Shown here piece by piece: positions 13,290 through 25,982 of a DNA stretch of 64,000 nucleotides. Numbering within the stretch: the first letter of the stretch is position 1; each line of letters starts with the position of its first letter. Source of the stretch: Phycisphaerae bacterium (GTDB taxonomy: Bacteria > Planctomycetota > Phycisphaerae > UBA1845). Both the position numbers and the translations under genes were made by a program. Under the pieces are notes generated by a model, which was not told where the DNA came from, did not search any database, and was given only the letters and a program-made list of their open reading frames with translations. The stretch spans positions 448,001 through 512,000 of the forward strand of contig CAXXGO010000003.1 of NCBI GenBank assembly GCA_963666835.2, given 5' to 3'.

Positions 13290-14417
13290 TCACCGTCGCC
13301 GGCTCCTCAGCAGAACGAGAAACACCGGAACGCCGATCAAGGCGGTAACCACGCCGATGGGCAGCGTCGCGCTGCCCAGGTGCCGCCCGGTTAACGAACC
13401 GGCAAGGCGCATCGTCAGTTGGGACGCCCAATCGCAGATAATCAGAAACGCCCCGCCCGCGATTGCCGACGCCGGAAGCAGGATCCGGCAATCCGGCCCT
13501 ACCAGCAGCGCTAGAGCATGTGGCACGACCAACCCGACGAAGCCGATCGGACCGCAATGGGCTACGACCGCCGCCGTCGCCAACGTCGCAACGAGCACAC
13601 AGACTCCCTGCAGCCGCGTGACATCGACCCCGCGCGCGGCCGCCAGCTCATCCCCAAGCCGGTACTGGTTTAGAGAACGGCTCGCCCCCACCAAGACTAT
13701 CCAGGCCGGCATAACAAACGGGAGAATCACTGCTCCGGAAACCCGCGTGATGGAATCGAGAGACCCCATCATCCATCGAACTGCGGTAAACGTAACCCGC
13801 TCGTCAGATACCGCCGTAACGAACATCATCATCGCCGAACAGAACAGACCGATCGTCACTCCGGCCAGCAGCAGCTCGTTCGAAGTAAGCCGGCGCGAGC
13901 CTCGGGCGATCAAAAACACCGCCCCCACTACGATGACCGCTCCGCCAAACGCGCAGAGCGCCGGCGAGGAGATTCCCAACACCGCAACCGTCCAACCAAG
14001 CCGGATGGCAATCAGAGCGCCGAGTGACCCGCCGCTGGCAATGCCGAGCGTATAGGGCGTCGCAAGGGAGTTCCGAAACAAAACCTGAAACGTCGCCCCG
14101 CAAAGAGCGAGCGTGATACCAACCTGCAAAGCCAGCAGACTCCGCGGGAACCGCTGATCGAAGATGTGCCGGGCTGTTGCTGCGAAACCGGCGGCTTCCT
14201 CCTCGGATACGGTGCCGTCCCCATCGATGTCGGCAAACGCCCGTCCCTGCAGCTCACTTGGCGCGATCTCCATCCCCATTCGCGCCCGCCAGACATCCGC
14301 CCAACCGAACGTGCCCGACTCCGTTCCGATCCCGGGGCTGATGATAAGCAAGGTCAGCACGCCGGCGGTGCCCGCGGCTAGTTGCAGCACATATTTTCTT
14401 CGCGTAAGGCCGGTCAT
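13290..14417 (-). CDS. Iron-chelate/cobalamin ABC transporter permease (FecCD/BtuC family)
   Basis: RFPR, FRNSLATPYTLGIASG, GPIGFVGLVVPH, LPIGVVTALIG; ATG overlaps the ATPase stop (ATGA). Confidence 0.93.
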   Translation of the reverse strand: MTGLTRRKYVLQLAAGTAGVLTLLIISPGIGTESGTFGWADVWRARMGMEIAPSELQGRAFADIDGDGTVSEEEAAGFAATARHIFDQRFPRSLLALQVGITLALCGATFQVLFRNSLATPYTLGIASGGSLGALIAIRLGWTVAVLGISSPALCAFGGAVIVVGAVFLIARGSRRLTSNELLLAGVTIGLFCSAMMMFVTAVSDERVTFTAVRWMMGSLDSITRVSGAVILPFVMPAWIVLVGASRSLNQYRLGDELAAARGVDVTRLQGVCVLVATLATAAVVAHCGPIGFVGLVVPHALALLVGPDCRILLPASAIAGGAFLIICDWASQLTMRLAGSLTGRHLGSATLPIGVVTALIGVPVFLVLLRSRRR

Positions 14418-15208
14418 CCGTTCCCCGCCGCCTCCCCCGCCGGGACGATCCACCACCGTGGGGAATCCCCTGCCATCCTAATCGCCGAAAGGTCTACGCC
14501 GTATACCGGCTGGAGGATTTCCGGAGTCAGAACCTCGGCCGGCGGCCCGCTCGCTATCTGAACGCCATCGTTGAGCACCAGCACATCCGAGCAGAATTGT
14601 GCCGCCAGGTTGACATCGTGCGTCACGACCACCACCGCAAGCCCCTCCCGCACCGCACGATCCCGCAAGATACCAAAGATGTCCAATTGATGCCTAAGGT
14701 CCAGCGATGCGGTAGGCTCATCCAGCAGGAGAAGCTCAGGTTCCTGAGCCAGCGCCGCCGCCAGATGAACGCGCTGGGCCTCGCCGCCGGAAAGTGTCGC
14801 CATCCTTCGTTCCGCAAACGGCAGCGTGGCCGTCCGCTGCATAGCACCCTCCACAATCTCAAGGTCCTCGGCGTTCTCGAATAGGCCAAACGGCCGGTGC
14901 GGAAACCGCCCGAGCAGAACCACCTCTCGAACAGAGAGGTCGATATCGCCGGACACCTGCTGGGGCACGAGAGCGACCCTCCGAGCCCGTTCGCGCGCGG
15001 GGATATCCGCAACCGCAGCCCCGCCGAGGGTAATCACGCCTTGCGTCGGCTTAGTCAACCCGGCCATCAAGCGTAACAGAGTGCTCTTACCCGCGCCGTT
15101 AGGCCCGACGATGGCCCAGTGTTGACCGCCGCCGATCGACAGCGAGACCGGCCCCAGAAACTCCGGTCGGTTCGGAAAGCCGAATTGCACATCTTCGAGG
15201 ACGAGCAT
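14414..15208 (-). CDS. Iron-chelate/cobalamin ABC transporter ATP-binding protein
   Basis: GPNGAGKST, LSGGE, LLLDEPT, THD. Confidence 0.95.
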   Translation of the reverse strand: MLVLEDVQFGFPNRPEFLGPVSLSIGGGQHWAIVGPNGAGKSTLLRLMAGLTKPTQGVITLGGAAVADIPARERARRVALVPQQVSGDIDLSVREVVLLGRFPHRPFGLFENAEDLEIVEGAMQRTATLPFAERRMATLSGGEAQRVHLAAALAQEPELLLLDEPTASLDLRHQLDIFGILRDRAVREGLAVVVVTHDVNLAAQFCSDVLVLNDGVQIASGPPAEVLTPEILQPVYGVDLSAIRMAGDSPRWWIVPAGEAAGNG

Positions 15209-15218
15209 GGACTTGGCC

Positions 15219-16163
15219 TTAAGGCTCAATCTCGTCCTCCGAATGGAGCAGTCGGGAAAGTCTCTCGATGATCTCCACATAACGCGGAGAGGGGATCAGG
15301 CAATTGTCTTCCGTGAGGAAGTACACGCGGTCGTTGTCCAGGGCGGGCACCCCCTGGAGCTGCCTCCATTGCTCGAGCATCTCCTGACGAATTGCCGGAG
15401 TAAGCTCCACCTCGGGCATAAGCTCCACGATGACCTCCGGCCTGCGGGCCACGATCCCCTCCGCACTCACCTGGGGGTACGGCATGTCCACGTGGCCAAA
15501 GACGTTTCGCCCGCCCGCAATCTCCAACATCTCGTGCAGGAACGTCCCCTTGCCGGTGGTCAAGACGTTCGCCAGACGGCCCGGGCGCCGCGCCACGGTA
15601 AGAAGGACCCCCGGACGTTGCCGACCCGTGACCCGATCGCGAATGGCCTGCAGGCGGCGGCGCAGATCCATCCGCAGACTCCGAGCTTCGTCAGCGCAGC
15701 CGAGGTAGCGGCCTAATTCGGTTATTCCGGTCTCCACGTCAGCCAGGGTCTCCGTCCTATCGAAGTAGATCGGAATATCCAGCCTGTCACAGAGTGACTC
15801 CACTGAGTCACTCCGCCCGCGCAGCACCAGAAGATCAGGACGCAGGGCGACGATCCTCTCAAGATCAGGATCGAACAGCCCCCCCACGCGCGGCCGCTCG
15901 ATAAGCTCGGGCGGATACACGCAGAACTTGCTCACCCCCACTATCCGATCAGCAACCCCTAGCGCACAGAGAACCTCCGCCGAGTTCGGGGCAATTGTGA
16001 CAATCCGTTGCGGCCCGCGAGGTGCGGAAGTTGCCTCGACGGGTGCCTTGGAGGGATCCGGCGAATTCGCGCTTGCGGCAAGGCCCAACACCCCGGCCAG
16101 GCCGACCGCCAGCAACATCAGCCGGTAGAACCGCCGCCTTGTCAGATAGCTTTGCGCGAACAT
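15219..16163 (-). CDS. Periplasmic binding protein, BtuF/iron-chelate type (helical backbone)
   Basis: RIVTIAPNSAEVLCALG, VGVSKFCVYP, PDLERIVALRPDL; N-terminal export signal. Confidence 0.9.
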   Translation of the reverse strand: MFAQSYLTRRRFYRLMLLAVGLAGVLGLAASANSPDPSKAPVEATSAPRGPQRIVTIAPNSAEVLCALGVADRIVGVSKFCVYPPELIERPRVGGLFDPDLERIVALRPDLLVLRGRSDSVESLCDRLDIPIYFDRTETLADVETGITELGRYLGCADEARSLRMDLRRRLQAIRDRVTGRQRPGVLLTVARRPGRLANVLTTGKGTFLHEMLEIAGGRNVFGHVDMPYPQVSAEGIVARRPEVIVELMPEVELTPAIRQEMLEQWRQLQGVPALDNDRVYFLTEDNCLIPSPRYVEIIERLSRLLHSEDEIEP

Positions 16164-16248: not shown

Positions 16249-18012
16249 TCAGACTTTGGGGACGAGACAGGCATCCTGCACACTGTGGCCACAGATGCTC
16301 GCTACGCTAACAGTGGCGCGAGGTCGCTCCGCCTTCCCGGGCGACCAACAGAACAACCGATCGCGAAGCTCATTCGTAGCGACGATCAGATCAGGGGCAA
16401 CCTCGACTCGACGCAAAGTCTGACCGCCCGCCTCATAACGACAGGCGAAGCTGTCGCCTATCACACAGGCATGGACGTGCAAAGACGTGTCCGTGAAGAC
16501 CAAACGCCGCACACCCTGCGTCGCCAGCAACCAAACCGACTCGGCCGCCCGTTGTGACCCGCGGTGCAAACGCTCCGGACTCGAGTCTTGCCCTGGTCTC
16601 CAGCGTAGGACATCCCCCGCGCTGTTGCCCGCAAACACGCCATCCGAAGTGGCACAGACCGCGGAAATCGCGCCCTCGCTGCCAGTGTAAACGCTCGCGG
16701 GACGATGCGACCGGTCGTCAGCCGGCCAGCGGATTACTCGATCGTCGATCGCACAATACAAATCGCCGGCTAGTAAGGTAATCCCCCGGACGGTCTGCGC
16801 ATCGCGGGTCATTGACTCAAAACACCGCCGGACGTTCTCTACGTCACCGATATCCCACTCACATATACCCAGCTCGGAGTGAGAGCCAAACACCCGCCCG
16901 CCAACTGCTACCACCGAGTTGAACCCGTATCGAACCACAGGGGCTTCCGCAACGGGCAGAACCAGGTCCGGTGCCGACGCTTCCAACGGCAGCCGGTAGA
17001 CGCCGGTGGCGGCGCCCAGCAACAACGCCTGTTCGCCGTTTTCCGCCTGCGCTAACTGCACCGACCGTACCGCCCCCACGGCCCCAGCAATCGGTATCGT
17101 CATTCGCGGAGCTTCCAAGCTATCCGCAGCGAAGAAGAGCAATTCGCCTCCTGCGCTCACGACGATCCACTGAGTGCGGTCCGTTGGCACGTCGGAGGCG
17201 AATAAAGCCTCATACAACTCGCCGCGCTGGTGTTCGGAGAACGTGCGGAGCAACTCCGGCATATCCGCATCCGGCGAGTCCGCGGACATTGCTTTTAGAC
17301 GCTCCAACATCGACGCCAGATGGTCGAGATGGTCGCCCTGAGCCCGTTCAAGGGCACGCTGGACCCCGCGGGCGGCCACGTGTTCGGCTTGGCTGCGCAC
17401 CGCCCGCTGCTGAGTATCACGAATCTGACGAAGCGTGTCCGACGAAACCAGCACGGTGGGCTTGCCCTGCAAAGTCAATCCGGCGGCGAAACACGCGCCA
17501 TCAAGAGCCGCAACGAGGGCATCGGCCACCCTCTCGCCGGCACTGCCCTCCACAAGTTCCGCGGCCTCGTGCTCGGCGGTTGACCGCAGTACGCTATCGC
17601 GAACTGCAGATGCGAGAGCCGTTAAAAGGGACTCGGTCCGCACAGTGCGTCTGCTGCCGAGGATCTTCTCGCTGAACGATCGCAATTCACCGACTTCCGG
17701 AACGGGCGCCACACTCAACCGAACATCCGCCCGACATCGATATCGATCACTCGTGAGGGCATCTTCCACCCTCAAGGCCACCTCGACCGGAGAGACCCGC
17801 ACAAAGAGCAGATCGTCCGCGTCACCCGCCTCGACCACCGCCCCGGGCGGGGCCACTACGTGGTCGCGAGTCGTTCGAGTTACAAGCGCCGCCCAACCGT
17901 GTGGCAGGTCCAATGACCGAGTCAGCAAGCCGAAAACATCCGCAGCCGGAGCAATAGCGGCGAGGTTGCCGTCGTCAGCAAAGAACTTTTTGAGATTGAA
18001 CTTCCCAGCCAT
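16249..18012 (-). CDS. Putative SPFH/band-7-like domain + coiled coil + beta-propeller protein
   Basis: N-half follows the SPFH pattern (LPHGWAALV..PPG..LLFV..LTSD..GLTL), then a helical segment; C-half has repeated 4-strand WD40-like units (AISAVCATSDGVFAGNSAGDVLRW); start ATG 18012. Confidence 0.65.
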   Translation of the reverse strand: MAGKFNLKKFFADDGNLAAIAPAADVFGLLTRSLDLPHGWAALVTRTTRDHVVAPPGAVVEAGDADDLLFVRVSPVEVALRVEDALTSDRYRCRADVRLSVAPVPEVGELRSFSEKILGSRRTVRTESLLTALASAVRDSVLRSTAEHEAAELVEGSAGERVADALVAALDGACFAAGLTLQGKPTVLVSSDTLRQIRDTQQRAVRSQAEHVAARGVQRALERAQGDHLDHLASMLERLKAMSADSPDADMPELLRTFSEHQRGELYEALFASDVPTDRTQWIVVSAGGELLFFAADSLEAPRMTIPIAGAVGAVRSVQLAQAENGEQALLLGAATGVYRLPLEASAPDLVLPVAEAPVVRYGFNSVVAVGGRVFGSHSELGICEWDIGDVENVRRCFESMTRDAQTVRGITLLAGDLYCAIDDRVIRWPADDRSHRPASVYTGSEGAISAVCATSDGVFAGNSAGDVLRWRPGQDSSPERLHRGSQRAAESVWLLATQGVRRLVFTDTSLHVHACVIGDSFACRYEAGGQTLRRVEVAPDLIVATNELRDRLFCWSPGKAERPRATVSVASICGHSVQDACLVPKV

Positions 18013-18070
18013 GATTCCGTCACTCAATGATCGCTTCGCAGTCTCAGCAAGCGCTGTAGCCGCCGCACCC

Positions 18071-19189
18071 TCATTTCTCCCCCTGCGCAAACTTCTCGTA
18101 GCGGACCAGATCTGAAGGATGCACCGAAGGGGGATTCTCCTCGATCGCCGTCAGAACGTCCGCCACCGAGATCGGCCGCGGCTCCTGCCCCGCAATCGCC
18201 TCCATAAACGGGCGCTGGGCAGCCCGCTGGGCAATACTCTTGATGTCGGCCCCGCTGTATCCGGCAAGCCGGTCGCATAGTGCGCCGAAATCCACATCGT
18301 CCGCCAGCGGCCGGTCTCCGAAGTGGATTTCCAGCAGTCTATACCGTGCCGGAGCGTCCGGCAGACCCACGTGGATCTTCGCATCGAGCCGACCGGGGCG
18401 GAGCATGGCCTCGTCCAACATCCAAGGCCGGTTTGTGGCTCCGACAAACAGCAGAGCTCGATCGCCTCTGCGGTCGAAACCCTCCAGCTCCTGCAGAATC
18501 TGCGGCACAACCCGTTGCATAACCGTCGAGCTGTCGCTCTTTCGCTTTGGTACCAGAGCCTCCGTCTCGTCGAGGAAGATCACCGACGTAGGTTCCGCCT
18601 TGGCTGCGTCAAAAAGCTTCTGAATGTTCTGCTCCGCCTCCCCGACCCACTTGCTGAGCATCTGCGCCGGGCTGACTACGAAGAACGTAGCGTCAATCTC
18701 GTGGGCAATGGCCTTGGCGATCATCGTTTTGCCCGTACCCGGCGGGCCGTACAGCAAGATACCCCCGCCGCGGCCAATCCCATACTTCTGAGCCAGCTCA
18801 GGATGCGCAAACGGGTAAATCATCTTTAGCCGGATCTCCTCCTTGACATCATCCAGCCCGGCAATGTCCTCGAAACCGATGGTCGGCTTGTCTTTAACGA
18901 TCCAGTCCGAGGCATCCGCCCCGGAGTCGCCCTCTTTCTCGCGTTGCCGCTGGCGGGCGGCTTTCGGTGACTTGTGCAAACGATCGCAGTCCTTGGCCAG
19001 GTCGATCAACTCCGCGGCCAGCTCCTCGTGCTGACGCTGGGCCTCGGGCGATTGGGTCGCCGCGGCCAGCTCGATCATGCACTCGGCCGCATCGACCAGA
19101 TACGCCTTGGCCGCCAAGTAGTCGCCCTTCTGATAAGCGGCCACCCCTTTGCTCTTGAGTCGATCAAATGTGGCAAACGAAACTGCCAT
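18071..19189 (-). CDS. Single-domain classic AAA+ ATPase with an N-terminal MIT-like domain (Vps4/CdvC-like)
   Basis: FEDIAGLDDVKEEI, GPPGTGKT, SKWVGE pore loop, VIFLDE, GATNRPWMLD, GYSGADI, C-terminal PSVHPSDLVRYEKF; about 70-aa three-helix N-terminus. The AAA call is secure; Vps4 affinity is inferred. Confidence 0.85.
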   Translation of the reverse strand: MAVSFATFDRLKSKGVAAYQKGDYLAAKAYLVDAAECMIELAAATQSPEAQRQHEELAAELIDLAKDCDRLHKSPKAARQRQREKEGDSGADASDWIVKDKPTIGFEDIAGLDDVKEEIRLKMIYPFAHPELAQKYGIGRGGGILLYGPPGTGKTMIAKAIAHEIDATFFVVSPAQMLSKWVGEAEQNIQKLFDAAKAEPTSVIFLDETEALVPKRKSDSSTVMQRVVPQILQELEGFDRRGDRALLFVGATNRPWMLDEAMLRPGRLDAKIHVGLPDAPARYRLLEIHFGDRPLADDVDFGALCDRLAGYSGADIKSIAQRAAQRPFMEAIAGQEPRPISVADVLTAIEENPPSVHPSDLVRYEKFAQGEK

Positions 19190-19210
19190 GCGGTCCCTTT
19201 GGGCTTGTTC

Positions 19211-19585
19211 CTATTCGCGCCTCGTCACCGGGAGCCGGCGAACACGAATCGCTGTATCTCCGATCACGACAATCGCCCCGCGGACGAGGTCATCGTCAAG
19301 CTCATCCAGATTCGCGAGCAAAGCAGATGTATGCTCCTCTGGTCGACCGTTGTGCATTCTGAGGATGATGACCGACGGTTGGGCGTCAAACGAGCCTGCT
19401 AGCAACGTGCCGAAGTCCGTGTCCTGCGTAATGATGACACGTTCTTCGTCTGCCGCACGCCGGAGAATAGTCGCATCGTCAGCGGCCGCCAGTCCCAGAT
19501 CGCGAACGTGTACCGCATCGTTCCCCTCGGCTGCCAGATCGCGTGCAACTCTCCACGAAACGGCTTGGTCAACCAAGAACCTCAT
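19211..19585 (-). CDS. DUF5615 family PIN-like toxin (VapC45-like)
   Basis: MRFLVDQAV, DAVHVRDLGL, DDATIL, IITQDTDFG; follows a DUF433 gene. Confidence 0.9.
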   Translation of the reverse strand: MRFLVDQAVSWRVARDLAAEGNDAVHVRDLGLAAADDATILRRAADEERVIITQDTDFGTLLAGSFDAQPSVIILRMHNGRPEEHTSALLANLDELDDDLVRGAIVVIGDTAIRVRRLPVTRRE

Positions 19586-19586
19586 C

Positions 19587-19829
19587 TCAGGATCCAGTCT
19601 CTTTCAGTGGGACAATCCGGTCTTCGGTCAGTGTTGCGGCATAGCGCAGCGCCTCGACAATATCTTCTTCCTCGAGATCGGGGTATGCCTCCAGGATCTC
19701 ACCGTGAAGCATACCACTGGCCAAGCAACGTACGACGGTGGCGACGGGGATCCGCAAACCGCGAATGCACGCCTGCCCACCCATCTGTTTGGGATCAAAA
19801 GTCAACCGTCCCCATTCCATTGTTCTCAT
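19587..19829 (-). CDS. DUF433 family antitoxin
   Basis: DPKQMGGQACIRGLRIPV...EILEAYPDLEEEDIVEALRYAA. Confidence 0.92.
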   Translation of the reverse strand: MRTMEWGRLTFDPKQMGGQACIRGLRIPVATVVRCLASGMLHGEILEAYPDLEEEDIVEALRYAATLTEDRIVPLKETGS

Positions 19830-20048
19830 CCTTCACGCAATCACCGTCTGTCACGCAGAAAGCCCCGGTTTCCGCGCCGTAGTGTCTACCCCAAGAACTC
19901 AAGCCCCATCGCAATTGGCAACTCGGCGGAAGCCCCCCCTTCTCAAAACGAAATTTCATTATCGTGCTCGTGCGGAACAAACACCAAACCCTATGATAAG
20001 AGCCCCCCTCATACCAGCAACGTATTCGTGCCACACGAATTCCCAGCA

Positions 20049-20774
20049 TCAAAGCTCCTCGAAGAAGCGATTCTGCCAGTCCGGAATGCCGTTCACTCCT
20101 GGGCACGCTCCGGTGTAAGGTTGTTCAAGAACTCGCGCCGGGATCCAAACATACTCGTGTTCTCTCAATGTCGCACGTACTGTTTGGCGGACTTCATCCT
20201 TGAGCCCGTCTTCATTGACAATCCCAGCCAGCCGACCGAAGTTGCTCGCACATATCCGTGCATAACCCCATTCCTCGTTATTGATAAGGCAAACAGCCGG
20301 CAACCGGACAGCGCCATGATAGCTCGCGTCCTGTATTTGCGGGCACATCTCCACCTTCGCTTGATCCGGAGAACAGTCAAAATCAGTAGTCAGGTTGAGA
20401 GAGAGCTTCGTGCAGAGATCATCCGCAAACCGCCTGAACTCATCGACCGCAACATCCCAGACAAAACCAAACGGGCATTCACTGCGCTTCGGGTCATCTG
20501 CCTCTGACAGAACCTCTAACCACACGACATCTGCCGGCCTCTTGAGACGCGGAGACTCCATTGAGTTCGGTGTCGTATCATTCCGCGCACTGTTGGCGTT
20601 CTCAATCCTATCCTGGCCGATAGCCAGCACCGCCTCGCTCAGCGACAAACCGAAAACACCGCGGATCACTCGGATGGAGGAAACCGCAGTAGCTCCATCT
20701 GACATCAGCGTATCGAACACATCCACCGGCGTTGCACCGCTTGTCTTTAACTCCACGTATTTCGTCGTGTCCAT
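20049..20774 (-). CDS. Hypothetical protein (N-terminal L7/L12-CTD-like helical motif)
   Basis: 241-aa ORF in a locally AT-richer segment; SIRVIRGVFGLSLSEA motif; C-terminal PYTG..DWQNRFF. Confidence 0.6.
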   Translation of the reverse strand: MDTTKYVELKTSGATPVDVFDTLMSDGATAVSSIRVIRGVFGLSLSEAVLAIGQDRIENANSARNDTTPNSMESPRLKRPADVVWLEVLSEADDPKRSECPFGFVWDVAVDEFRRFADDLCTKLSLNLTTDFDCSPDQAKVEMCPQIQDASYHGAVRLPAVCLINNEEWGYARICASNFGRLAGIVNEDGLKDEVRQTVRATLREHEYVWIPARVLEQPYTGACPGVNGIPDWQNRFFEEL

Positions 20775-20946
20775 TGTACGGCTCGCGACTCAGGCGGTAT
20801 TCCTTGGATCGGTGCGAACGCAAGTGACGAAGCTCTGCTCTTGCCACCCAGGCCACCTCGAACCACTTTGCCGCTCCTTGGCACAGGTAGAATAGGGGAA
20901 AGCACTCTCGACTGTCCCAATGCTCTTGCCCACGAGTGGATCCCCT

Positions 20947-21555
20947 CTACTTCTGCTTCTCCCCCTCGCCCTTGAGGGCGTTCAGTTCGGCACGCAGGCC
21001 GGCGAGTTTGTCTAGTTCCTTCTGATGCTCCGCTTCCGTCTCGGCGTCGATCAGGCGGTCGATCTCGTCGTCGGTGACGACCTCGCCCGCCTTGCTCATC
21101 TCAATGTCTTGGGCGGCGACGTCCTCCACCGTATCGAGGAACATATCCATCCGCTCTTCCATGGTCTGAGACTGCACCATGGCCTTCTCCCAATCGGCCT
21201 GGGTCTTGACCAGATCCGTCTCGCCGAAGAGCTTGCCGATCTCCCCGGCCATCATCCCCATCGCCTGGGCAAAATCGGCCGACGCCTCCGCCTGCCGCTT
21301 GACCAACAAAGCGTTCTTGACGGACAGAAGCTGTCTTTCGAGCATCCGGCGGATAGTGGCGGTCTTCTTGAGCGAGTTGCGAATGAAGACGTATTGCTGG
21401 GTGTCGCCGATCTTCTTGGCGTGCTGGGCGTTCTTGATGAACTCATCCTGGAACTTGCCCTGCTCGCGAATCGACTTCTCTATCCGGCGGATCCCCTGCC
21501 GGATCTTGATGTCTCGTTCGATCCGCCGCTCTTCCGGTGATTTGAAAAGTCCCAT
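20947..21555 (-). CDS. ESCRT-III/Snf7-PspA superfamily-like protein (Vps2/Vps24/CdvB-like)
   Basis: 202 aa, all-helical pattern; MGLFK amphipathic start; basic N-half, acidic C-half; DDEIDRLID helix; terminal LRAELNALK. Confidence 0.75.
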   Translation of the reverse strand: MGLFKSPEERRIERDIKIRQGIRRIEKSIREQGKFQDEFIKNAQHAKKIGDTQQYVFIRNSLKKTATIRRMLERQLLSVKNALLVKRQAEASADFAQAMGMMAGEIGKLFGETDLVKTQADWEKAMVQSQTMEERMDMFLDTVEDVAAQDIEMSKAGEVVTDDEIDRLIDAETEAEHQKELDKLAGLRAELNALKGEGEKQK

Positions 21556-21642: not shown

Positions 21643-21858
21643 TCAATAATACTCGCGCTCCGGAATGATAAGCCAAAGCACGAGGTAGATGACGCACATA
21701 ATGAAACCGGGAAAACCAATTGGCAGTATCGATAACAGTGCATAAACCACCCGCACGGCAACCGGGTCAATACCCAGGTACTCGCCGAGTCCGCCGCACA
21801 CCCCGCCGACCCATCGGTTGGCCACGCTTCTTCGCAACTGCTTCGGATAACCATTCAC
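21643..21858 (-). CDS. pspC: PspC domain protein
   Basis: LRRSVANRWVGGVCGGLGEYLGID...RV...YLVLWLIIP, the PspC signature. Confidence 0.95.
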   Translation of the reverse strand: MNGYPKQLRRSVANRWVGGVCGGLGEYLGIDPVAVRVVYALLSILPIGFPGFIMCVIYLVLWLIIPEREYY

Positions 21859-21906: not shown

Positions 21907-22512
21907 CTACTGTTCGGGAGCCGCTTGTCTTTCCCGCACGCTCCGATCGGCTTCGTCGAAGCCCTCGGTTGTGTCGGTGATAGCCCCGGCGTCCATCTTC
22001 TCCCACACGTTCATTACGGTCTGCCCCGCTTCTGTCAGACCGGCGGCACCTTCGTCCACCGTAGCCCCCAACGCGAGAATCTCGTCCAGCCTCTCCTGGT
22101 AGACCTCGGCCCTGATCCCGTCCGACTCGATTAGCTTGCCGAGCCGCAGCATGTCCGCTTCACTGATCAACCCCAGCTTCGACGATTGCCCGGCTCGTTC
22201 GGTGTTCTCGCGCAACATACGCAGGCGGGATACGGTCATCATCTCTTTGCTGCGGACGTTGAGCTGCCGCGAGAGCATCAACTGCTCACTCGTGCGCAGT
22301 TCAAACTCCTGGGCGTAAGCCCGCCGAAGCTCCGGAGTCTTTTCCTGGGCTCCGCGCTCGAAGATCCCCTGCTTCTCCTTGGCAAGCTTCGCGATCTTGT
22401 TGAGCAGGCGCGTACGGTCCTTCTCGAGCAGCAGTTCCTGCCGCCGCAACTCCGTCCGCGTCATCCGCGAGAGCGGTCTCTTTCGCTTGGTGAGCCATTC
22501 GAGAAAGGCCAT
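21907..22512 (-). CDS. Helical coiled-coil protein, putative divergent ESCRT-III-like subunit
   Basis: 201 aa; MAFLEWL amphipathic start; long basic helical hairpin, acidic C-half; parallels the Snf7-like region of the neighbouring gene. Confidence 0.6.
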   Translation of the reverse strand: MAFLEWLTKRKRPLSRMTRTELRRQELLLEKDRTRLLNKIAKLAKEKQGIFERGAQEKTPELRRAYAQEFELRTSEQLMLSRQLNVRSKEMMTVSRLRMLRENTERAGQSSKLGLISEADMLRLGKLIESDGIRAEVYQERLDEILALGATVDEGAAGLTEAGQTVMNVWEKMDAGAITDTTEGFDEADRSVRERQAAPEQ

Positions 22513-22578
22513 AGTCAACACATCCCCCGCAAAGCGGAAAAACCCACTAGTGACATCGCATCGTCACAATACCGACTT

Positions 22579-24042
22579 TCAGATAGCCTCCGGATCGGCC
22601 GGTCGATCCTTCTGCTTCTCAGGCACGTCCGTAGTACCGGAGTCCGCCAGCGGCGGCATGGCCGAATCCGCCGCGGCGGTCGAAGCCGGCTCCTCCGCGG
22701 TCGGGGCTGCCTTGTCCGGCTCGACCGGGGCGGCGGCGGGCCCCTCGAACTCGCGCAGGATGGCCAGCTCATCTTCGCTCATTAGGGCTTGTTCCATGCC
22801 GGTTTCGAGCCCCCCGACCATCTCCGCGTCGGCCTGCAGCGTCTCGAGCATCTCCTCGGCCGCGACGGCGTGTTCGGTCAGCTCCGTTGTGTCGGGCAGC
22901 TTGGCCGCCTCGCCCTGCTGGATCAACGTCAAGTTGTGGATGTCCGTACTGATGATGTTGATCTGCTGATTCAGCATCGCCGCAGTCGTGTTCTGCCGAG
23001 AGATATCCTTGCGCATCTGGGCCAGTTGCGCCGCGATCCGCCGCCGCGGAACTTGCGACGTCGCAGCCTTGCCCTCTTCGAGGAGCGTAGCCTCCTTCTT
23101 CTCCAGCTTGCCGATGTCTTCGTAGATCCGATCGCGGCGTTGGGCCAGCGCCGCCCGCCGTTCCGCCAGCAAGTTGATCTTCTCCGCGTCGTCGCCTTCG
23201 CCGGAGAAGAGCTGTTTGATTCGATCGATGACGTTCATCGAGTGTCTCTCCTGACGGTGCACTGGTGCACCCCGGAACAACAGGAATTCGCCTTCCTTAC
23301 GGGTGAGGCGTAGCTCCGGCTCAGCGTCCGCCACTTGCTGGAATCCCGCGCGGACTACCTCCTCAGGAAGTCCCGTCTCTCTAGCTACCGACGATACCGA
23401 TAACCCGCCGGTGAGCAAGTCGGCGCTGCGGGCTTCGATCCCGTCACGAACCCGCTCCAGTTTCTGCTTCGCCCCTTCCGGATCGAATATTTTCAACAAC
23501 CGCGGATCCACATTTTCGCCGCCGCCGGTGGTCTTCCAGCCACCGCACCCGTCCGGCTCAATCAACACCACGGTTACATCCCCGGCAGAAAGTGAAGCCG
23601 CCCGAGCCTCTTGCGAAAAGCCCGTTGTGCTGCACACGCCGATGATGTGCGGCACCCGCTCGTCGGCTACCAACTTGCGAACGTGATCGCTCAGCTCCCC
23701 CAGACCGATCGGCGGCGGTTCGCTACTGCCCGGGTCGGCGAAGTGACTCAAGGGCGACAGAACCGAGGCAACCGCGACCCCTGTCCGTCGCTTCCAAAAT
23801 AGAAAACGACGTTCATAGCCATGTAGCGCGATCCGACGGTTGGCCGGAAGCGTTTTGAGCAGTTCACGGTCGTAATTGCGGTTCTTGGCCATCAAAGCCC
23901 GCAGCCGGTCACCCTCGTCATGCTGCGACCGCTGCCAGGATGATCCGCGTAAGTACTTTCGCTTCGCCGCTCCCAGATTCGCCTCGACCCCCGAGAGGAA
24001 CTCGGTCTCGTACTGAAGAGCTTTCGATGCGTCAATCGTCAT
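22579..24042 (-). CDS. Fusion protein: restriction-endonuclease-like fold + winged helix + Snf7/ESCRT-III-like C-terminal domain
   Basis: IIGVCSTTGFSQEARAA..VVLIE (Mrr-like C-terminal motif); LSVSSVARETGLPEEVV..LRLTRKEGEFLLF (wHTH); residues 269-487 begin MNVIDRIKQLFSG, form a helical hairpin, and end SEDELAILREFE + Pro/acidic tail. Confidence 0.7.
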   Translation of the reverse strand: MTIDASKALQYETEFLSGVEANLGAAKRKYLRGSSWQRSQHDEGDRLRALMAKNRNYDRELLKTLPANRRIALHGYERRFLFWKRRTGVAVASVLSPLSHFADPGSSEPPPIGLGELSDHVRKLVADERVPHIIGVCSTTGFSQEARAASLSAGDVTVVLIEPDGCGGWKTTGGGENVDPRLLKIFDPEGAKQKLERVRDGIEARSADLLTGGLSVSSVARETGLPEEVVRAGFQQVADAEPELRLTRKEGEFLLFRGAPVHRQERHSMNVIDRIKQLFSGEGDDAEKINLLAERRAALAQRRDRIYEDIGKLEKKEATLLEEGKAATSQVPRRRIAAQLAQMRKDISRQNTTAAMLNQQINIISTDIHNLTLIQQGEAAKLPDTTELTEHAVAAEEMLETLQADAEMVGGLETGMEQALMSEDELAILREFEGPAAAPVEPDKAAPTAEEPASTAAADSAMPPLADSGTTDVPEKQKDRPADPEAI

Positions 24043-24048
24043 CTCGAT

Positions 24049-24318
24049 CTACTTCCGATCAGGGGGGCCATCAATCAACGGTGCTCCGCACTGGCTGCAG
24101 TATCGCCCTTCACGAACTTCGGTCTTGCCACATTGCTCCCTCGAACAGACTCGCACTCGGGGTCTTTGTCCTCGACCACCCCGCGGACCGCGAAGGACGG
24201 CGAAGAACCCCTTGCCGACCTCCCCGAAAGCCCGCGCAATGACATACAACAAGCCAAACAACAGGGCCGCGATCCCCAGTACGAGAATGAGAATGATAAC
24301 CAGAGCATCACCGGTCAT
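24049..24318 (-). CDS. Small membrane protein with a C-terminal zinc ribbon
   Basis: One long N-terminal TM helix; CSREQC...YCSQCGAPL; 6-nt gap to the next gene. Confidence 0.8.
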   Translation of the reverse strand: MTGDALVIILILVLGIAALLFGLLYVIARAFGEVGKGFFAVLRGPRGGRGQRPRVRVCSREQCGKTEVREGRYCSQCGAPLIDGPPDRK

Positions 24319-24337: not shown

Positions 24338-25366
24338 TCACTTCAGAACACTCAGGTCGTTGCCGCAGAAGATGCAGAACCGATCACTCGCATGCACGAA
24401 GGCCTGGCAAGCGGCGCATCGCGGCACCGATGCCACCAGTTGCTGCCCGCATTGTATACAGAACTGATCGTCGCGGTGGACCGGGTTGTTGCACGCCGGG
24501 CAAACCGGATCCCCCCCCGGCGGCACCCAACACCGCGAGGCCGCCCGCTCCGTCTCCGCCGGCGCCCCCGCCACAGCGTCCAGCATCTGCCGCGCGGAGG
24601 AGAATCGTCTTTCGTATCCCGTGTACGACCGCTGGAATACCTGATCCAAATGGGCGGGAACCCCGGACCGCAACGAACTCGGCAAATCACCGCCCTGAGG
24701 CTTCTTGCCGGTCAGCATCTCGAACAGGACTACTCCGCATGAAAACAGGTCACTGCGTGCATCCAGCTCTGCACCTTCCCGTTGTTCCGGAGACATATAA
24801 GCCAGAGTACCCGCAATGCTCCGCCCCTCTTCGGTCTGCATGCTCCCGCTCTGCATTATCGATTGCGCGGTGACACCGCCCACGCGCCCGAGACCGAAAT
24901 CCGTAATCTTGACAGATTGCTCACTGATGGAGGCAAGCTCCTCGAGCGGATGACTCAACAGCACGTTCGCCGGCTTGATGTCTCGATGGACAAGATTGTT
25001 CTCATGCGCCGCCGCCAGCGCTTGAAGGATTCCCCGAAGGACCGCCACGGCCGCACCGACGGGAAACTCCCCCTGATACCGATCAACCGCCTCCCGCAGA
25101 GACGGGCCGTCCACGTACTCCATAACCAGATACGGCGGGTCGGCATAGGGATCGAGATCAATGGCCCGGACGATGTTGGGATGGCGTAACCCGTGCACCG
25201 CAGTACCCTCGCGCTGCAGGTTCCGAACAAACTGCGGGTCGGTCGGGATCTTGATGGCCACCGCCTCACCGAACACGTGATGGCGCGCCCGCCAGACCTC
25301 GCCGAAGCTGCCCGCCCCGACGCGCTGCTCAAGCAAATAGTTGCTTATCCGGTCTCCCTCTTTCAC
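24338..25366 (-). CDS. Hanks-type Ser/Thr protein kinase with a C-terminal double zinc ribbon, no TM segment
   Basis: GGAGG RBS before GTG 25366; GAGSFGEVW, VAIK, HRDIKPAN, DFG, GTLAYMSPEQ; CPAC/CIQC/CAAC/CIFC. Confidence 0.93.
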   Translation of the reverse strand: MKEGDRISNYLLEQRVGAGSFGEVWRARHHVFGEAVAIKIPTDPQFVRNLQREGTAVHGLRHPNIVRAIDLDPYADPPYLVMEYVDGPSLREAVDRYQGEFPVGAAVAVLRGILQALAAAHENNLVHRDIKPANVLLSHPLEELASISEQSVKITDFGLGRVGGVTAQSIMQSGSMQTEEGRSIAGTLAYMSPEQREGAELDARSDLFSCGVVLFEMLTGKKPQGGDLPSSLRSGVPAHLDQVFQRSYTGYERRFSSARQMLDAVAGAPAETERAASRCWVPPGGDPVCPACNNPVHRDDQFCIQCGQQLVASVPRCAACQAFVHASDRFCIFCGNDLSVLK

Positions 25367-25407
25367 AAAGACGATCCCTCCACCGCCATCCACAATCACA
25401 AGGCGAA

Positions 25408-25812
25408 TCAGACCTCCTCCAGCCGCTCGGCTTGGAATTCGCACACCTTGAAATTGTAGACTCCGGCCGCAAGAAAACCAAGTACCAGGACCACCCACGT
25501 CAGGGCGGCATGCCCAGTCACCCTCCCGATCATCCAGAAAGCCACCAGAACGTCGGCCAGCAGATACCCGATCAGCATGACTGCGGCGGCCACGTTGGAG
25601 TCCTTCGAGACCACCCATGACGTCACGAAAAACGTGGCCCACGGCAGAACCAGCACGAACCCCAGCCACGCAACAACATACTTGACCGTTGACCAGATCG
25701 TCTCCAACTGCTCGGGATGATTCCAGAACCAGATTACGGCTCCCGCCCCCGAGACGACCAGAACGGCGGTCACTACCTTGCTACCTACGTATTGTCCAAT
25801 GGCGGCCAGCAT
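25408..25812 (-). CDS. Hypothetical 4-TM membrane protein
   Basis: GAGGAG RBS before ATG 25812; four hydrophobic segments; first gene of the co-oriented cluster. Confidence 0.8.
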   Translation of the reverse strand: MLAAIGQYVGSKVVTAVLVVSGAGAVIWFWNHPEQLETIWSTVKYVVAWLGFVLVLPWATFFVTSWVVSKDSNVAAAVMLIGYLLADVLVAFWMIGRVTGHAALTWVVLVLGFLAAGVYNFKVCEFQAERLEEV

Positions 25813-25982
25813 CCGATTGGGCTCCTCATCTGGCAGCGTCCCCACCAAGCAGGGACCATCCCGGGCTCCCACGTATACTCTACCGCAGAATACCGGCGCC
25901 GGCGATTACAAAGTCCGCATCACTCTGTAGTGTTGATTCGAGGAAAAGCGATGATTATCCACAAAATCCGACATGGACGGGA

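Follow-up and report, generated by a model that had tools for sequence, protein, structure and literature searches.

The E3a gene and its operon

We analyzed a window of 64,000 nucleotides from a Phycisphaerae bacterium (assembly GCA_963666835.2, contig CAXXGO010000003.1, positions 448,001 to 512,000). [quoted passage not shown] Its terminal helix was thought to resemble the MIT-interacting motif 1 (MIM1), and the subunit to recruit an ATPase carrying a MIT domain. In the direction of transcription, the operon consisted of a membrane protein, a Ser/Thr kinase, a zinc-ribbon membrane protein, a 487-aa protein, a second ESCRT-III-like subunit (E3b), a PspC protein and E3a, followed by a variable insert, the AAA ATPase AAA1 and a 613-aa SPFH-like/propeller protein. 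A third ESCRT-III-like region (E3c) forms part of the 487-aa protein.

Features of the E3a operon (positions in the window)
Feature	Position	Strand	Description
E3a	20947..21555	minus	Predicted ESCRT-III subunit, 202 aa; orthologue-level relative of euryarchaeal arCOG07402
E3a C-terminal amphipathic helix	20971..21006	minus	Residues 184-195, MIM1-like: L187/L191/L194 and K195, Glu190 at the Arg site
AAA1	18071..19189	minus	MIT-AAA+ ATPase of 372 aa with a MIT fold, one AAA domain, Vps4_C and an RPGR-type arginine finger
AAA1 MIT-like domain	18971..19189	minus	Three-helix bundle, residues 1-73; helix 3 with E55, K66, D69 (R, E, K in eukaryotic Vps4-like rows)
E3b	21907..22521	minus	Second ESCRT-III-like subunit, 204 aa, akin to Snf7-family proteins of arCOG09747/09749
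E3c	22579..23238	minus	Third ESCRT-III-like region, from invariant Met269 of the 487-aa open reading frame
Globular + winged-helix-like domain	23239..24042	minus	Homologue of the arCOG09748 C-terminal half; fused to E3c in this order
PspC-domain membrane protein	21643..21858	minus	Variable member (36/80 loci)
Ser/Thr kinase	24338..25669	minus	C-terminal double zinc ribbon
Multi-pass membrane protein	25408..25872	minus	Conserved, 154 aa, no family assigned
613-aa protein	16249..18090	minus	Conserved; weak Band-7/SPFH-like N-half (E 0.13), probable beta-propeller C-half
Small membrane protein	24049..24318	minus	Zinc ribbon; homologues detected in only 3/80 loci

The E3a open reading frame (ORF) ran from 21555 to 20947, and stop codons interrupted the reading of the plus strand across it. 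Its GC content at third codon positions was 0.83. The gene was present as one copy in the genome, and orthologues with 67-90% identity were found in 35 of 41 related genomes, including 25 of the 27 high-quality ones. The E3a ORF is real. An assembly chimera was ruled out: the GC content of the contig (0.609) equaled that of the genome, in which it was uniform, and the operon recurred in dozens of planctomycete genomes. The named records among the closest loci were mostly metagenome-assembled genomes of Phycisphaerae or Planctomycetota.

The motifs quoted in the initial annotation were located in the protein. MGLFK occupied residues 1-5, the hairpin motifs IRQGIRRIEKSIREQ and AKKIGDTQQY residues 18-32 and 46-55, the middle-helix motifs LKKTATIRRMLERQL and FAQAMGMMAGEIGKL residues 62-76 and 95-109, and the acidic VTDDEIDRLID residues 160-170. 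LRAELNALK was present at 187-195 but is not terminal as had been described, with 7 further residues coming after it.

Among 80 related loci, the operon genes recurred on one strand with E3a in the following numbers: E3b in 71, the 487-aa gene in 67, the kinase in 60, the ATPase in 59, the 613-aa gene in 50, the membrane protein in 45 and PspC in 36. When the count was restricted to loci flanked by 5 kb or more, the ATPase was found on the same strand in 46 of 55, E3b and E3c/487-aa each in 57 of 63, and the kinase in 56 of 63. AAA1 started at most 150 nt from E3a in 21 of 59 loci. In 40 distant loci, half of which had been used to build the profiles, the winged-helix module was found in 38 (as a separate gene where inspected), a second type of ATPase (AAA2) in 21 and AAA1 in 20; most of the distant loci that had both genes carried E3a immediately upstream of AAA1. 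E3c was a standalone gene in other planctomycete lineages. Most matches of the kinase to homologues began at residue 102, and its true start probably lies close to there.

The gap between E3a and the ATPase (19190-20946) is an insertion hot spot, ranging from 12 to 3593 nt across 59 loci; in the window it holds a DUF433/DUF5615 pair, a probable toxin-antitoxin module, and an unassigned 241-aa ORF of lower GC content. A Shine-Dalgarno-like word was found ahead of Met269 (23238, minus strand; loci L001-L080) in 49 of 61 fused genes, as compared to 15% at random codons. The 487-aa gene may yield two products, one in which the winged-helix module is fused to ESCRT-III and one that is a free ESCRT-III; the word could also stem from conserved Gln/Glu codons.

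Relationship of E3a to ESCRT-III and to the archaeal Main-clade system

A homologue search of 1.84 billion representatives returned 296 relatives of E3a at E<=0.001, and 52 near-full-length family members, including the query, were aligned (alignment A1). The A1 profile matched CHMP2A (3.4e-6), CHMP3 (6.6e-6), Snf7 (0.02) and CdvB (0.92) in the PDB, as well as CHMP1B, and PspA/Vipp1 was absent from all 17 matches at E<=10. The Pfam Snf7 family was matched by 22 of the 52 A1 members at E<=0.1. PspA_IM30 was not among the 25 Pfam families listed for these members, so that at most one of them matches it. The comparison of Snf7 and PspA_IM30 profile scores, which had been proposed together with the initial annotation, thus came out in favor of Snf7/CHMP.

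The AlphaFold model of E3a (predicted local distance difference test, pLDDT, 82.6) contained helices at 7-49, 52-109, 116-156 and 162-201, a layout of the ESCRT-III type with an alpha1-alpha2 hairpin followed by alpha3-alpha5, in a protein whose N-half is basic and whose C-half is acidic. In Foldseek, CHMP2A ranked first (2.3e-3) and CHMP3 second (6.9e-3), ahead of Vipp1 (0.24) and PspA (3.0). Re-ranking by VIA placed Vipp1/PspA at Z 8.3-9.4; this measure fails to tell ESCRT-III from other hairpins, as ATP synthase chains reached Z 10.0. As controls, two genuine PspA proteins of relatives gave no match at E<=1 to the E3a profile, the Pfam model of PspA had no match in the host genome (92% complete), and PspA was above the cut-off in only 2 of 41 relatives. 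Because profile searches, fold ranking and PspA controls all favored Snf7/CHMP, a PspA identity was rejected, and from its sequence E3a is almost certainly an ESCRT-III protein of the archaeal/eukaryotic (Snf7/CHMP) branch. By analogy, it would polymerize on and deform membranes.

The closest named relative was reached by a plasmid search with the ATPase of a distant planctomycete locus, which led to a plasmid locus of Thermococcus peptonophilus. Table S2 of PMC10936438 lists the arCOG of each gene of this locus, and its protein WP_062390961 is arCOG07402 (papers are cited here by PMC number). The A1 profile matched this single arCOG07402 protein at E 1.5e-25 over profile positions 3-192 (Z=1000), and E3a itself showed 27% identity to it over 167 residues. 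The runner-up among 338 control ORFs, an ESCRT-III-like ORF of CdvC loci, reached 1.7e-5, and the others were weaker. The correct label for E3a is therefore arCOG07402-like rather than Vps2 or CdvB, and the initial name was not supported as it stood. What survives of it is a resemblance to Vps2, with CHMP2A and CHMP3 as top PDB matches, but not orthology. The Thermococcus arCOG07402 protein alone yielded no ESCRT match in a profile search of the PDB.

The other operon genes pointed to the same archaeal locus. The E3b profile matched arCOG09747 at 5.8e-12 and arCOG09749 at 2e-8 (Z=1000), the E3c profile matched both weakly (E 1e-4 and 3e-4), and the N-half of the 487-aa protein matched the globular and winged-helix part of arCOG09748 at 2.2e-13 (profile positions 9-261 of 275). 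E3b on its own had no Pfam match and no significant PDB match, and PDB profile searches with E3b and the 487-aa protein gave no ESCRT match. Profile-profile comparisons of E3a with E3b and with E3c were not significant (probability 1-2%); therefore the three are linked through their archaeal relatives alone. Atlas matches to MIT clusters (0.87) and Methanobacteriota clusters (0.81 and 0.77) serve as leads only.

E3a shares with arCOG07402 the full-length similarity and the linkage to arCOG09747/09749/09748 and a Vps4-like ATPase, and very probably belongs to a Main-clade-type ESCRT system. Since the profiles of the operon genes match the Thermococcus locus, the operon is, by homology and gene order, a bacterial counterpart of the euryarchaeal Main-clade system. 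As described by Makarova et al. 2024 (PMC10936438), that system comprises arCOG07402, 09747, 09749, 09748, 01307, a kinase and a phosphatase. Both have a kinase, E3a corresponds to arCOG07402, E3b/E3c to arCOG09747/09749, and the globular + winged-helix module to arCOG09748; the order of winged-helix gene, Snf7 genes and ATPase is similar, and the AAA2 of other planctomycetes is sister to archaeal Main/halo ATPases (100/99). However, the host is a bacterium, arCOG08177 and the phosphatase were not recognized in the window locus, and the long N-terminal coiled coil is missing from the arCOG09748-like module, which is joined to an ESCRT-III. Furthermore, the order has only the RPGR-type AAA1, Main-clade Vps4 not being found in 41 genomes, and the operon adds PspC, the SPFH-like/propeller protein and a membrane protein.

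Resemblances to other systems were more limited. With the eukaryotic/Asgard Vps2/24/46 proteins (CHMP2A, CHMP3, CHMP1/Did2), E3a shares the top PDB profile and Foldseek matches, the helix layout and the terminal amphipathic helix LxxxLxxL[K], but its similarity to them is far below that to arCOG07402, the first Asp/Glu and the Arg of MIM1 and a modeled flexible tether are missing, and its partner AAA1 lies outside the Vps4/katanin clade. The size and layout of AAA1 recall TACK CdvC, which is also its best NCBIfam model, whereas E3a has neither the C-terminal winged helix nor the proline-rich MIM2 of CdvB, CdvC-locus ORFs score no better than given above, CdvA was not recognized, and AAA1 carries RPGR instead of RRF. 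Ravi et al. 2024 (PMC11237479) described Vps4-like ATPases in bacteria including Planctomycetes, with TPR and six-transmembrane partners and with snf7 displaced, and occasional bacterial Snf7 homologues in other contexts. The present locus likewise has a Vps4-like ATPase in a bacterium, and AAA1 groups with a TPR-adjacent Streptomyces ATPase that probably belongs to their family, but unlike their operons it holds three ESCRT-III genes and a winged-helix module. PspA/Vipp1 share the superfamily fold with E3a and the operon has a PspC neighbor, but every profile test placed E3a on another branch of the superfamily, and PspA is described as having no Vps4-like recycling ATPase (PMC7619361).

The ATPases and the C-terminal helix of E3a

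[quoted passage not shown] The model of the AAA1 N-domain was a three-helix bundle (pLDDT 87), and 9 of its 10 top Foldseek matches were MIT domains of Vps4, katanin, MITD1 and NRBF2, with a best E of 0.14, which is not significant. In a wide fold search, 8 of the top 10 were MIT domains or MIT-bearing chains at Z 10.7-11.9, a range that, by the tool's own warning, is not decisive for helical bundles. A first N-domain profile built from 33 close sequences had no significant MIT match; a profile of the AAA1 N-domain matched 2mpk over positions 11-68 at E 2.8e-5, a structure that we take to be a chitin-synthase fragment and a MIT domain. The homologue search with AAA1 listed close bacterial relatives alone, none with a precomputed MIT match. 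AAA1 also carries a single AAA domain and a C-terminal Vps4 helix, with Vps4_C at 28 bits (Pfam cut-off 21.3). CdvC was its best NCBIfam model over the whole length, at 227 bits (cut-off 650). It shows the traits by which Vps4 is assigned in PMC10936438, an N-terminal MIT domain or nearby ESCRT genes.

Two phylogenetic trees of AAA domains were built, the first from 42 rows and the second, to which FtsH was added, from 35; most rows came from a set of 71 domains, and neither tree held Asgard, PAN or spastin rows. AAA1 formed its own clade (100/99) and stood with the Vps4-like groups against Cdc48 (100/98 or 94/94). It grouped with the Streptomyces ATPase linked to TPR and with an arCOG01307 protein of haloarchaea (98/93 and 91/95). 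A grouping with the Main clade had a p value of 0.34 in the approximately unbiased test (p-AU), and a bacteria-only clade of AAA1 and AAA2 was rejected (p-AU 0.005). AAA2 together with the ATPase of Candidatus Chlorohelix formed the sister group of the archaeal Main/halo ATPases noted above. The xRF finger was present in CdvC, eukaryotic, Main-clade and AAA2 rows, and RTGR in the haloarchaeal arCOG01307 row. By its sequence, AAA1 is a non-canonical motor and not a canonical Vps4.

A search of 41 genomes of the window's order did not find AAA2, the Main-clade Vps4; the best score there was 163 bits at 32-39% identity. The AAA1-type N-domain was detected in 38 of 401 phylum genomes, all among the 69 with E3a; its profile misses family f38 (0/8), although f38 carries AAA1. 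In five f19 genomes AAA1 was sited away from the E3a locus, and in three f69 genomes AAA2 was the sole MIT-ATPase. At least one of the two MIT-ATPases was present in all 10 genomes checked. A Halogeometricum plasmid (H37) was rejected as an ESCRT locus: its arCOG01307 gene is solo, with no ESCRT neighbors.

Some carriers showed unusual motors. At one locus (L097:10394-11632), an ATPase next to a normal AAA2 joins an AAA1-type N-domain to an AAA domain of the AAA2 type, apparently through a domain swap between the two motors. In L135 (G537:C2:1945025-1946126), AAA1 is split into two adjoining pieces in different frames, by frameshift or assembly error. A third AAA ATPase occurred in some carriers (G477:C6:429507-430277, G592:C1:5168550-5169386 and G305:C11:106057-106830), as open frames of 450-504 aa with about 1e-70 to 1e-74 against the AAA1 profile.

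The C-terminal helix of E3a was compared to the MIM1 consensus [DE]xxLxxRLxxL[KR] (PMC12057046, PMC5141497). As the initial annotation had pointed out, the central Arg is replaced, by Glu190. Its description of the end as MIM1-like held for the leucine triad and K195, but a canonical MIM1 it is not, with Leu184 and Glu190 breaking the consensus. Since four of six positions including three leucines were reached by 49 of 3931 ORF tails of the same genome (1.25%), and four of six by 9% of shuffled orthologue tails, the match of the single sequence is modest. Conservation was more telling. In 79 orthologues of the order, L187, E190 and K195 were invariant and R188 was 99% conserved, and the tail was as conserved as helix 5. 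The leucine triad occurred in 79/79 order orthologues, 40/52 A1 members and 25/40 distant loci, as compared to 18.6% of genome ORF tails. All 25 scored distant loci had Asp/Glu at the first MIM1 position. Relaxed matches of at least five positions were found in 10 of 52 A1 members and 9 of 40 distant loci, versus about 4% of shuffles.

The ATPase side was mapped by an alignment to five eukaryotic Vps4-like proteins, whose spacing fits the numbering of PMC5141497. There, Vps4 D38, R57, L64, A67, E68 and K71 are among the MIM1 contacts, and salt bridges join the MIM1 Arg to helix-3 acids and its last Arg to a helix-2 acid. The aligned AAA1 residues were E36, E55, I62, A65, K66 and D69. Among 53 order ATPases, E36 was kept in 48, E55 in 52, a hydrophobic residue at I62 in 53, A65 in 53, K/R66 in 53 and D/E69 in 41. 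The groove thus retains the hydrophobic core and the helix-2 acid, with helix-3 charges inverted: the helix-3 Glu column was Glu in 5/5 eukaryotic rows and Lys/Arg in 53/53 order ATPases, whose tails carry Glu. In family f38, the tail had Arg/Lys and AAA1 had Glu66 in three of three cases; AAA2 there had Thr or Ile. Because the inverted helix-3 charges match the Glu at the Arg site of the tail, the E3a tail is probably a charge-inverted MIM1, and its binding to the AAA1 MIT domain is predicted with moderate confidence. A complex prediction of MIT 1-78 with tail 152-202 scored 0.20 and 0.30 (mark 0.32) and was counted neither way.

Distribution and proposed function of the system

E3a was detected in 69 of 401 phylum genomes, belonging to 27 families. 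Within the class Phycisphaerae, 28 of the 29 other genomes belonging to the order had it, as did 22 of 28 genomes in family f19, one of two in f117 and, marginally, one in f113, and none was found in the remaining class families searched (0/28, 0/20, 0/18 and others). E3a is thus near-core where present and patchy overall. No FtsZ/tubulin match was found in the host genome (92% complete).

A related partial locus lies on plasmid NZ_CP128401.1 of Ca. Chlorohelix allophototropha (Chloroflexota; L105:1-4655, 13293-14351), a record from a cultured colony. It contains a gene resembling E3b/E3c and another helical gene, together with an ATPase of the AAA2 type, an arCOG09748-like gene, a phosphatase and several kinases. 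Its ATPase was nested among planctomycete AAA2, and no E3a match was found in the haloarchaeal and Chlorohelix stretches examined. Eight distant E3a relatives (P0098, P0107, P0111, P0115, P0123, P0124, P0131 and P0132) carry a C-terminal P-loop domain, FtsK/SpoIIIE-like by eye, and two (P0057 and P0063) an unassigned N-terminal extension of about 220 residues. In the window, the next operon on the same strand (13290-16163) encodes an iron/cobalamin-type ABC transporter (binding protein by Pfam, ATPase and permease by eye). ARAGORN called a selenocysteine tRNA (tRNA-SeC) on genome contig C6 (1320413-1320508).

Drawing on the observed homology, gene order, co-occurrence, MIT fold and tail conservation, we propose that the operon is a bacterial copy of the Main-clade ESCRT in which E3a is one of three subunits and its tail recruits AAA1, a reading that as a whole we hold to be somewhat probable. 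By analogy with characterized ESCRT-III proteins, the short hydrophobic/basic N-terminus and basic hairpin of E3a would bind the cytoplasmic membrane, and E3a would co-polymerize with E3b and E3c. The winged-helix module would nucleate this polymer and may be an ESCRT-II-like nucleator. In CHMP7, a winged-helix part is likewise fused to an ESCRT-III subunit, as in the E3c fusion. The last helix of E3a would dock in the groove between MIT helix 2 and helix 3 by means of its three leucines and K195, and the usual salt bridge would be turned around, running from tail Glu190 to MIT Lys66. The hexameric ATPase would then pull subunits from the polymer, leading to remodeling and recycling.

Several results weigh against this reading. 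E3a by itself matches neither Snf7 nor PspA_IM30, its Pfam and NCBIfam scans returning just a chance CodY match, and neither the E3a model nor the AAA1 N-domain had a Foldseek match at E<=0.001. Only 2 of 38 AAA1 N-domains matched Pfam MIT, versus 12 for TPR_2. The RPGR finger of all 22 AAA1 rows is not that of Vps4/CdvC, the best PDB sequence matches of AAA1 were Cdc48/p97, and AAA1 fell outside every canonical Vps4 clade, its grouping with Cdc48 not being rejected (p-AU 0.07). For the tail, only four of six MIM1 positions agree, strict matches of at least four positions occurred in 6 of 52 A1 members versus 5.7% of shuffles, and the Arg site is mostly Gly across the wider family (18 of 25 scored distant loci). 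In the AlphaFold model, helix 5 continues into the tail as a single helix (162-201) and a flexible tether is absent, and E3b ends in an invariant helix of its own (E190, A191, V195, R196), which could instead be the true ligand. Evidence for the charge swap comes from about two independent lineages; one locus is ambiguous (L095, tail Glu with ATPase Asp in the register of the script) and another fits poorly (L128, Glu with Gln), so that it is a lead and not proof.

The incomplete MIM1 match, the variable Arg site, the continuous helix and the E3b terminus would also suit the same ESCRT system with a structural or autoinhibitory tail. Such a tail would pack against the hairpin, the winged-helix module or a different subunit, and the ATPase would be recruited by a subunit other than E3a, such as E3b, or act on other substrates. 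Haloarchaeal and Chlorohelix loci, in which a Main-type ATPase accompanies other Snf7-like genes, point the same way. However, conservation of the tail equals that of helix 5 among the orthologues of the order, MIT helix-3 charges are reciprocal to it in two lineages, and E3a directly precedes AAA1 in most distant loci with both genes; we regard this alternative as unlikely. Much further from the evidence is the view that E3a is an ordinary PspA/Vipp1-type stress protein with an ELxxLK end by chance and an unrelated AAA neighbor. The PspC gene directly upstream and the weak Vipp1/PspA fold matches (Foldseek E 0.24-3) could be cited for it. PspA/Vipp1 were nevertheless missing from the PDB profile matches, at most 1/52 members matches PspA_IM30, the host genome has no match to the PspA model, and the PspA proteins of relatives went unscored where arCOG07402 reached 1.5e-25. 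It is highly improbable.

As to the role of the E3a operon, kinase-controlled membrane repair or remodeling in the place of PspA is tentatively favored, because PspA was above the cut-off in only 2 of 41 relatives and the operon contains an SPFH-like gene as well as PspC. The sorting of vesicles or cargo, a role suggested for the archaeal system, would be a second choice and rather doubtful. Division was also considered: in a Cdv-like machine, as in Sulfolobales, polymers would constrict the neck and the ATPase would disassemble them stepwise. The genome lacks an FtsZ/tubulin match, binary fission in Phycisphaerae takes place without FtsZ (PMC6952346), division by ESCRT has been proposed for the FtsZ-less Thermoplasmata (PMC10936438), and E3a is single-copy, nearly universal in the order and conserved at 67-90% identity. 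However, E3a was not found in most other class families or in 332 of 401 phylum genomes, so that division in the majority of planctomycetes must do without it; protein sorting is the role proposed for the archaeal Main-clade system (PMC10936438), PspC and the SPFH-like gene suggest membrane stress, and no CdvA-like gene was recognized. Because most FtsZ-less planctomycetes lack the system, division is the least likely role. It is improbable that this FtsZ-less order uses its archaeal-type ESCRT-III trio, winged-helix nucleator, own MIT-AAA motor and charge-inverted MIM1 to divide.

Recent reviews hold that the combination of ESCRT-III and a Vps4-like motor is lacking in bacteria. The open-access literature covered, subscription papers lying outside the search, gave no description of ESCRT-III with a Vps4-like ATPase in planctomycetes in the passages covered of PMC10936438, PMC11237479, PMC7619361, PMC8281802, PMC6952346, PMC7240154, PMC12057046, PMC5141497 and PMC7203096, and those of PMC12673574 did not mention ESCRT. 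The operon represents a new bacterial form of the archaeal Main-clade ESCRT, one whose motor is non-canonical. Almost all genomes of one Phycisphaerae order carry the complete operon, and 27 families in the 401-genome phylum sample have it. It provides a bacterial system for asking whether the motor recycles ESCRT-III, and a candidate for membrane remodeling, or division, in FtsZ-less bacteria. Furthermore, two differing ATPases in one operon bear on the origin of Vps4 from Cdc48-like enzymes.

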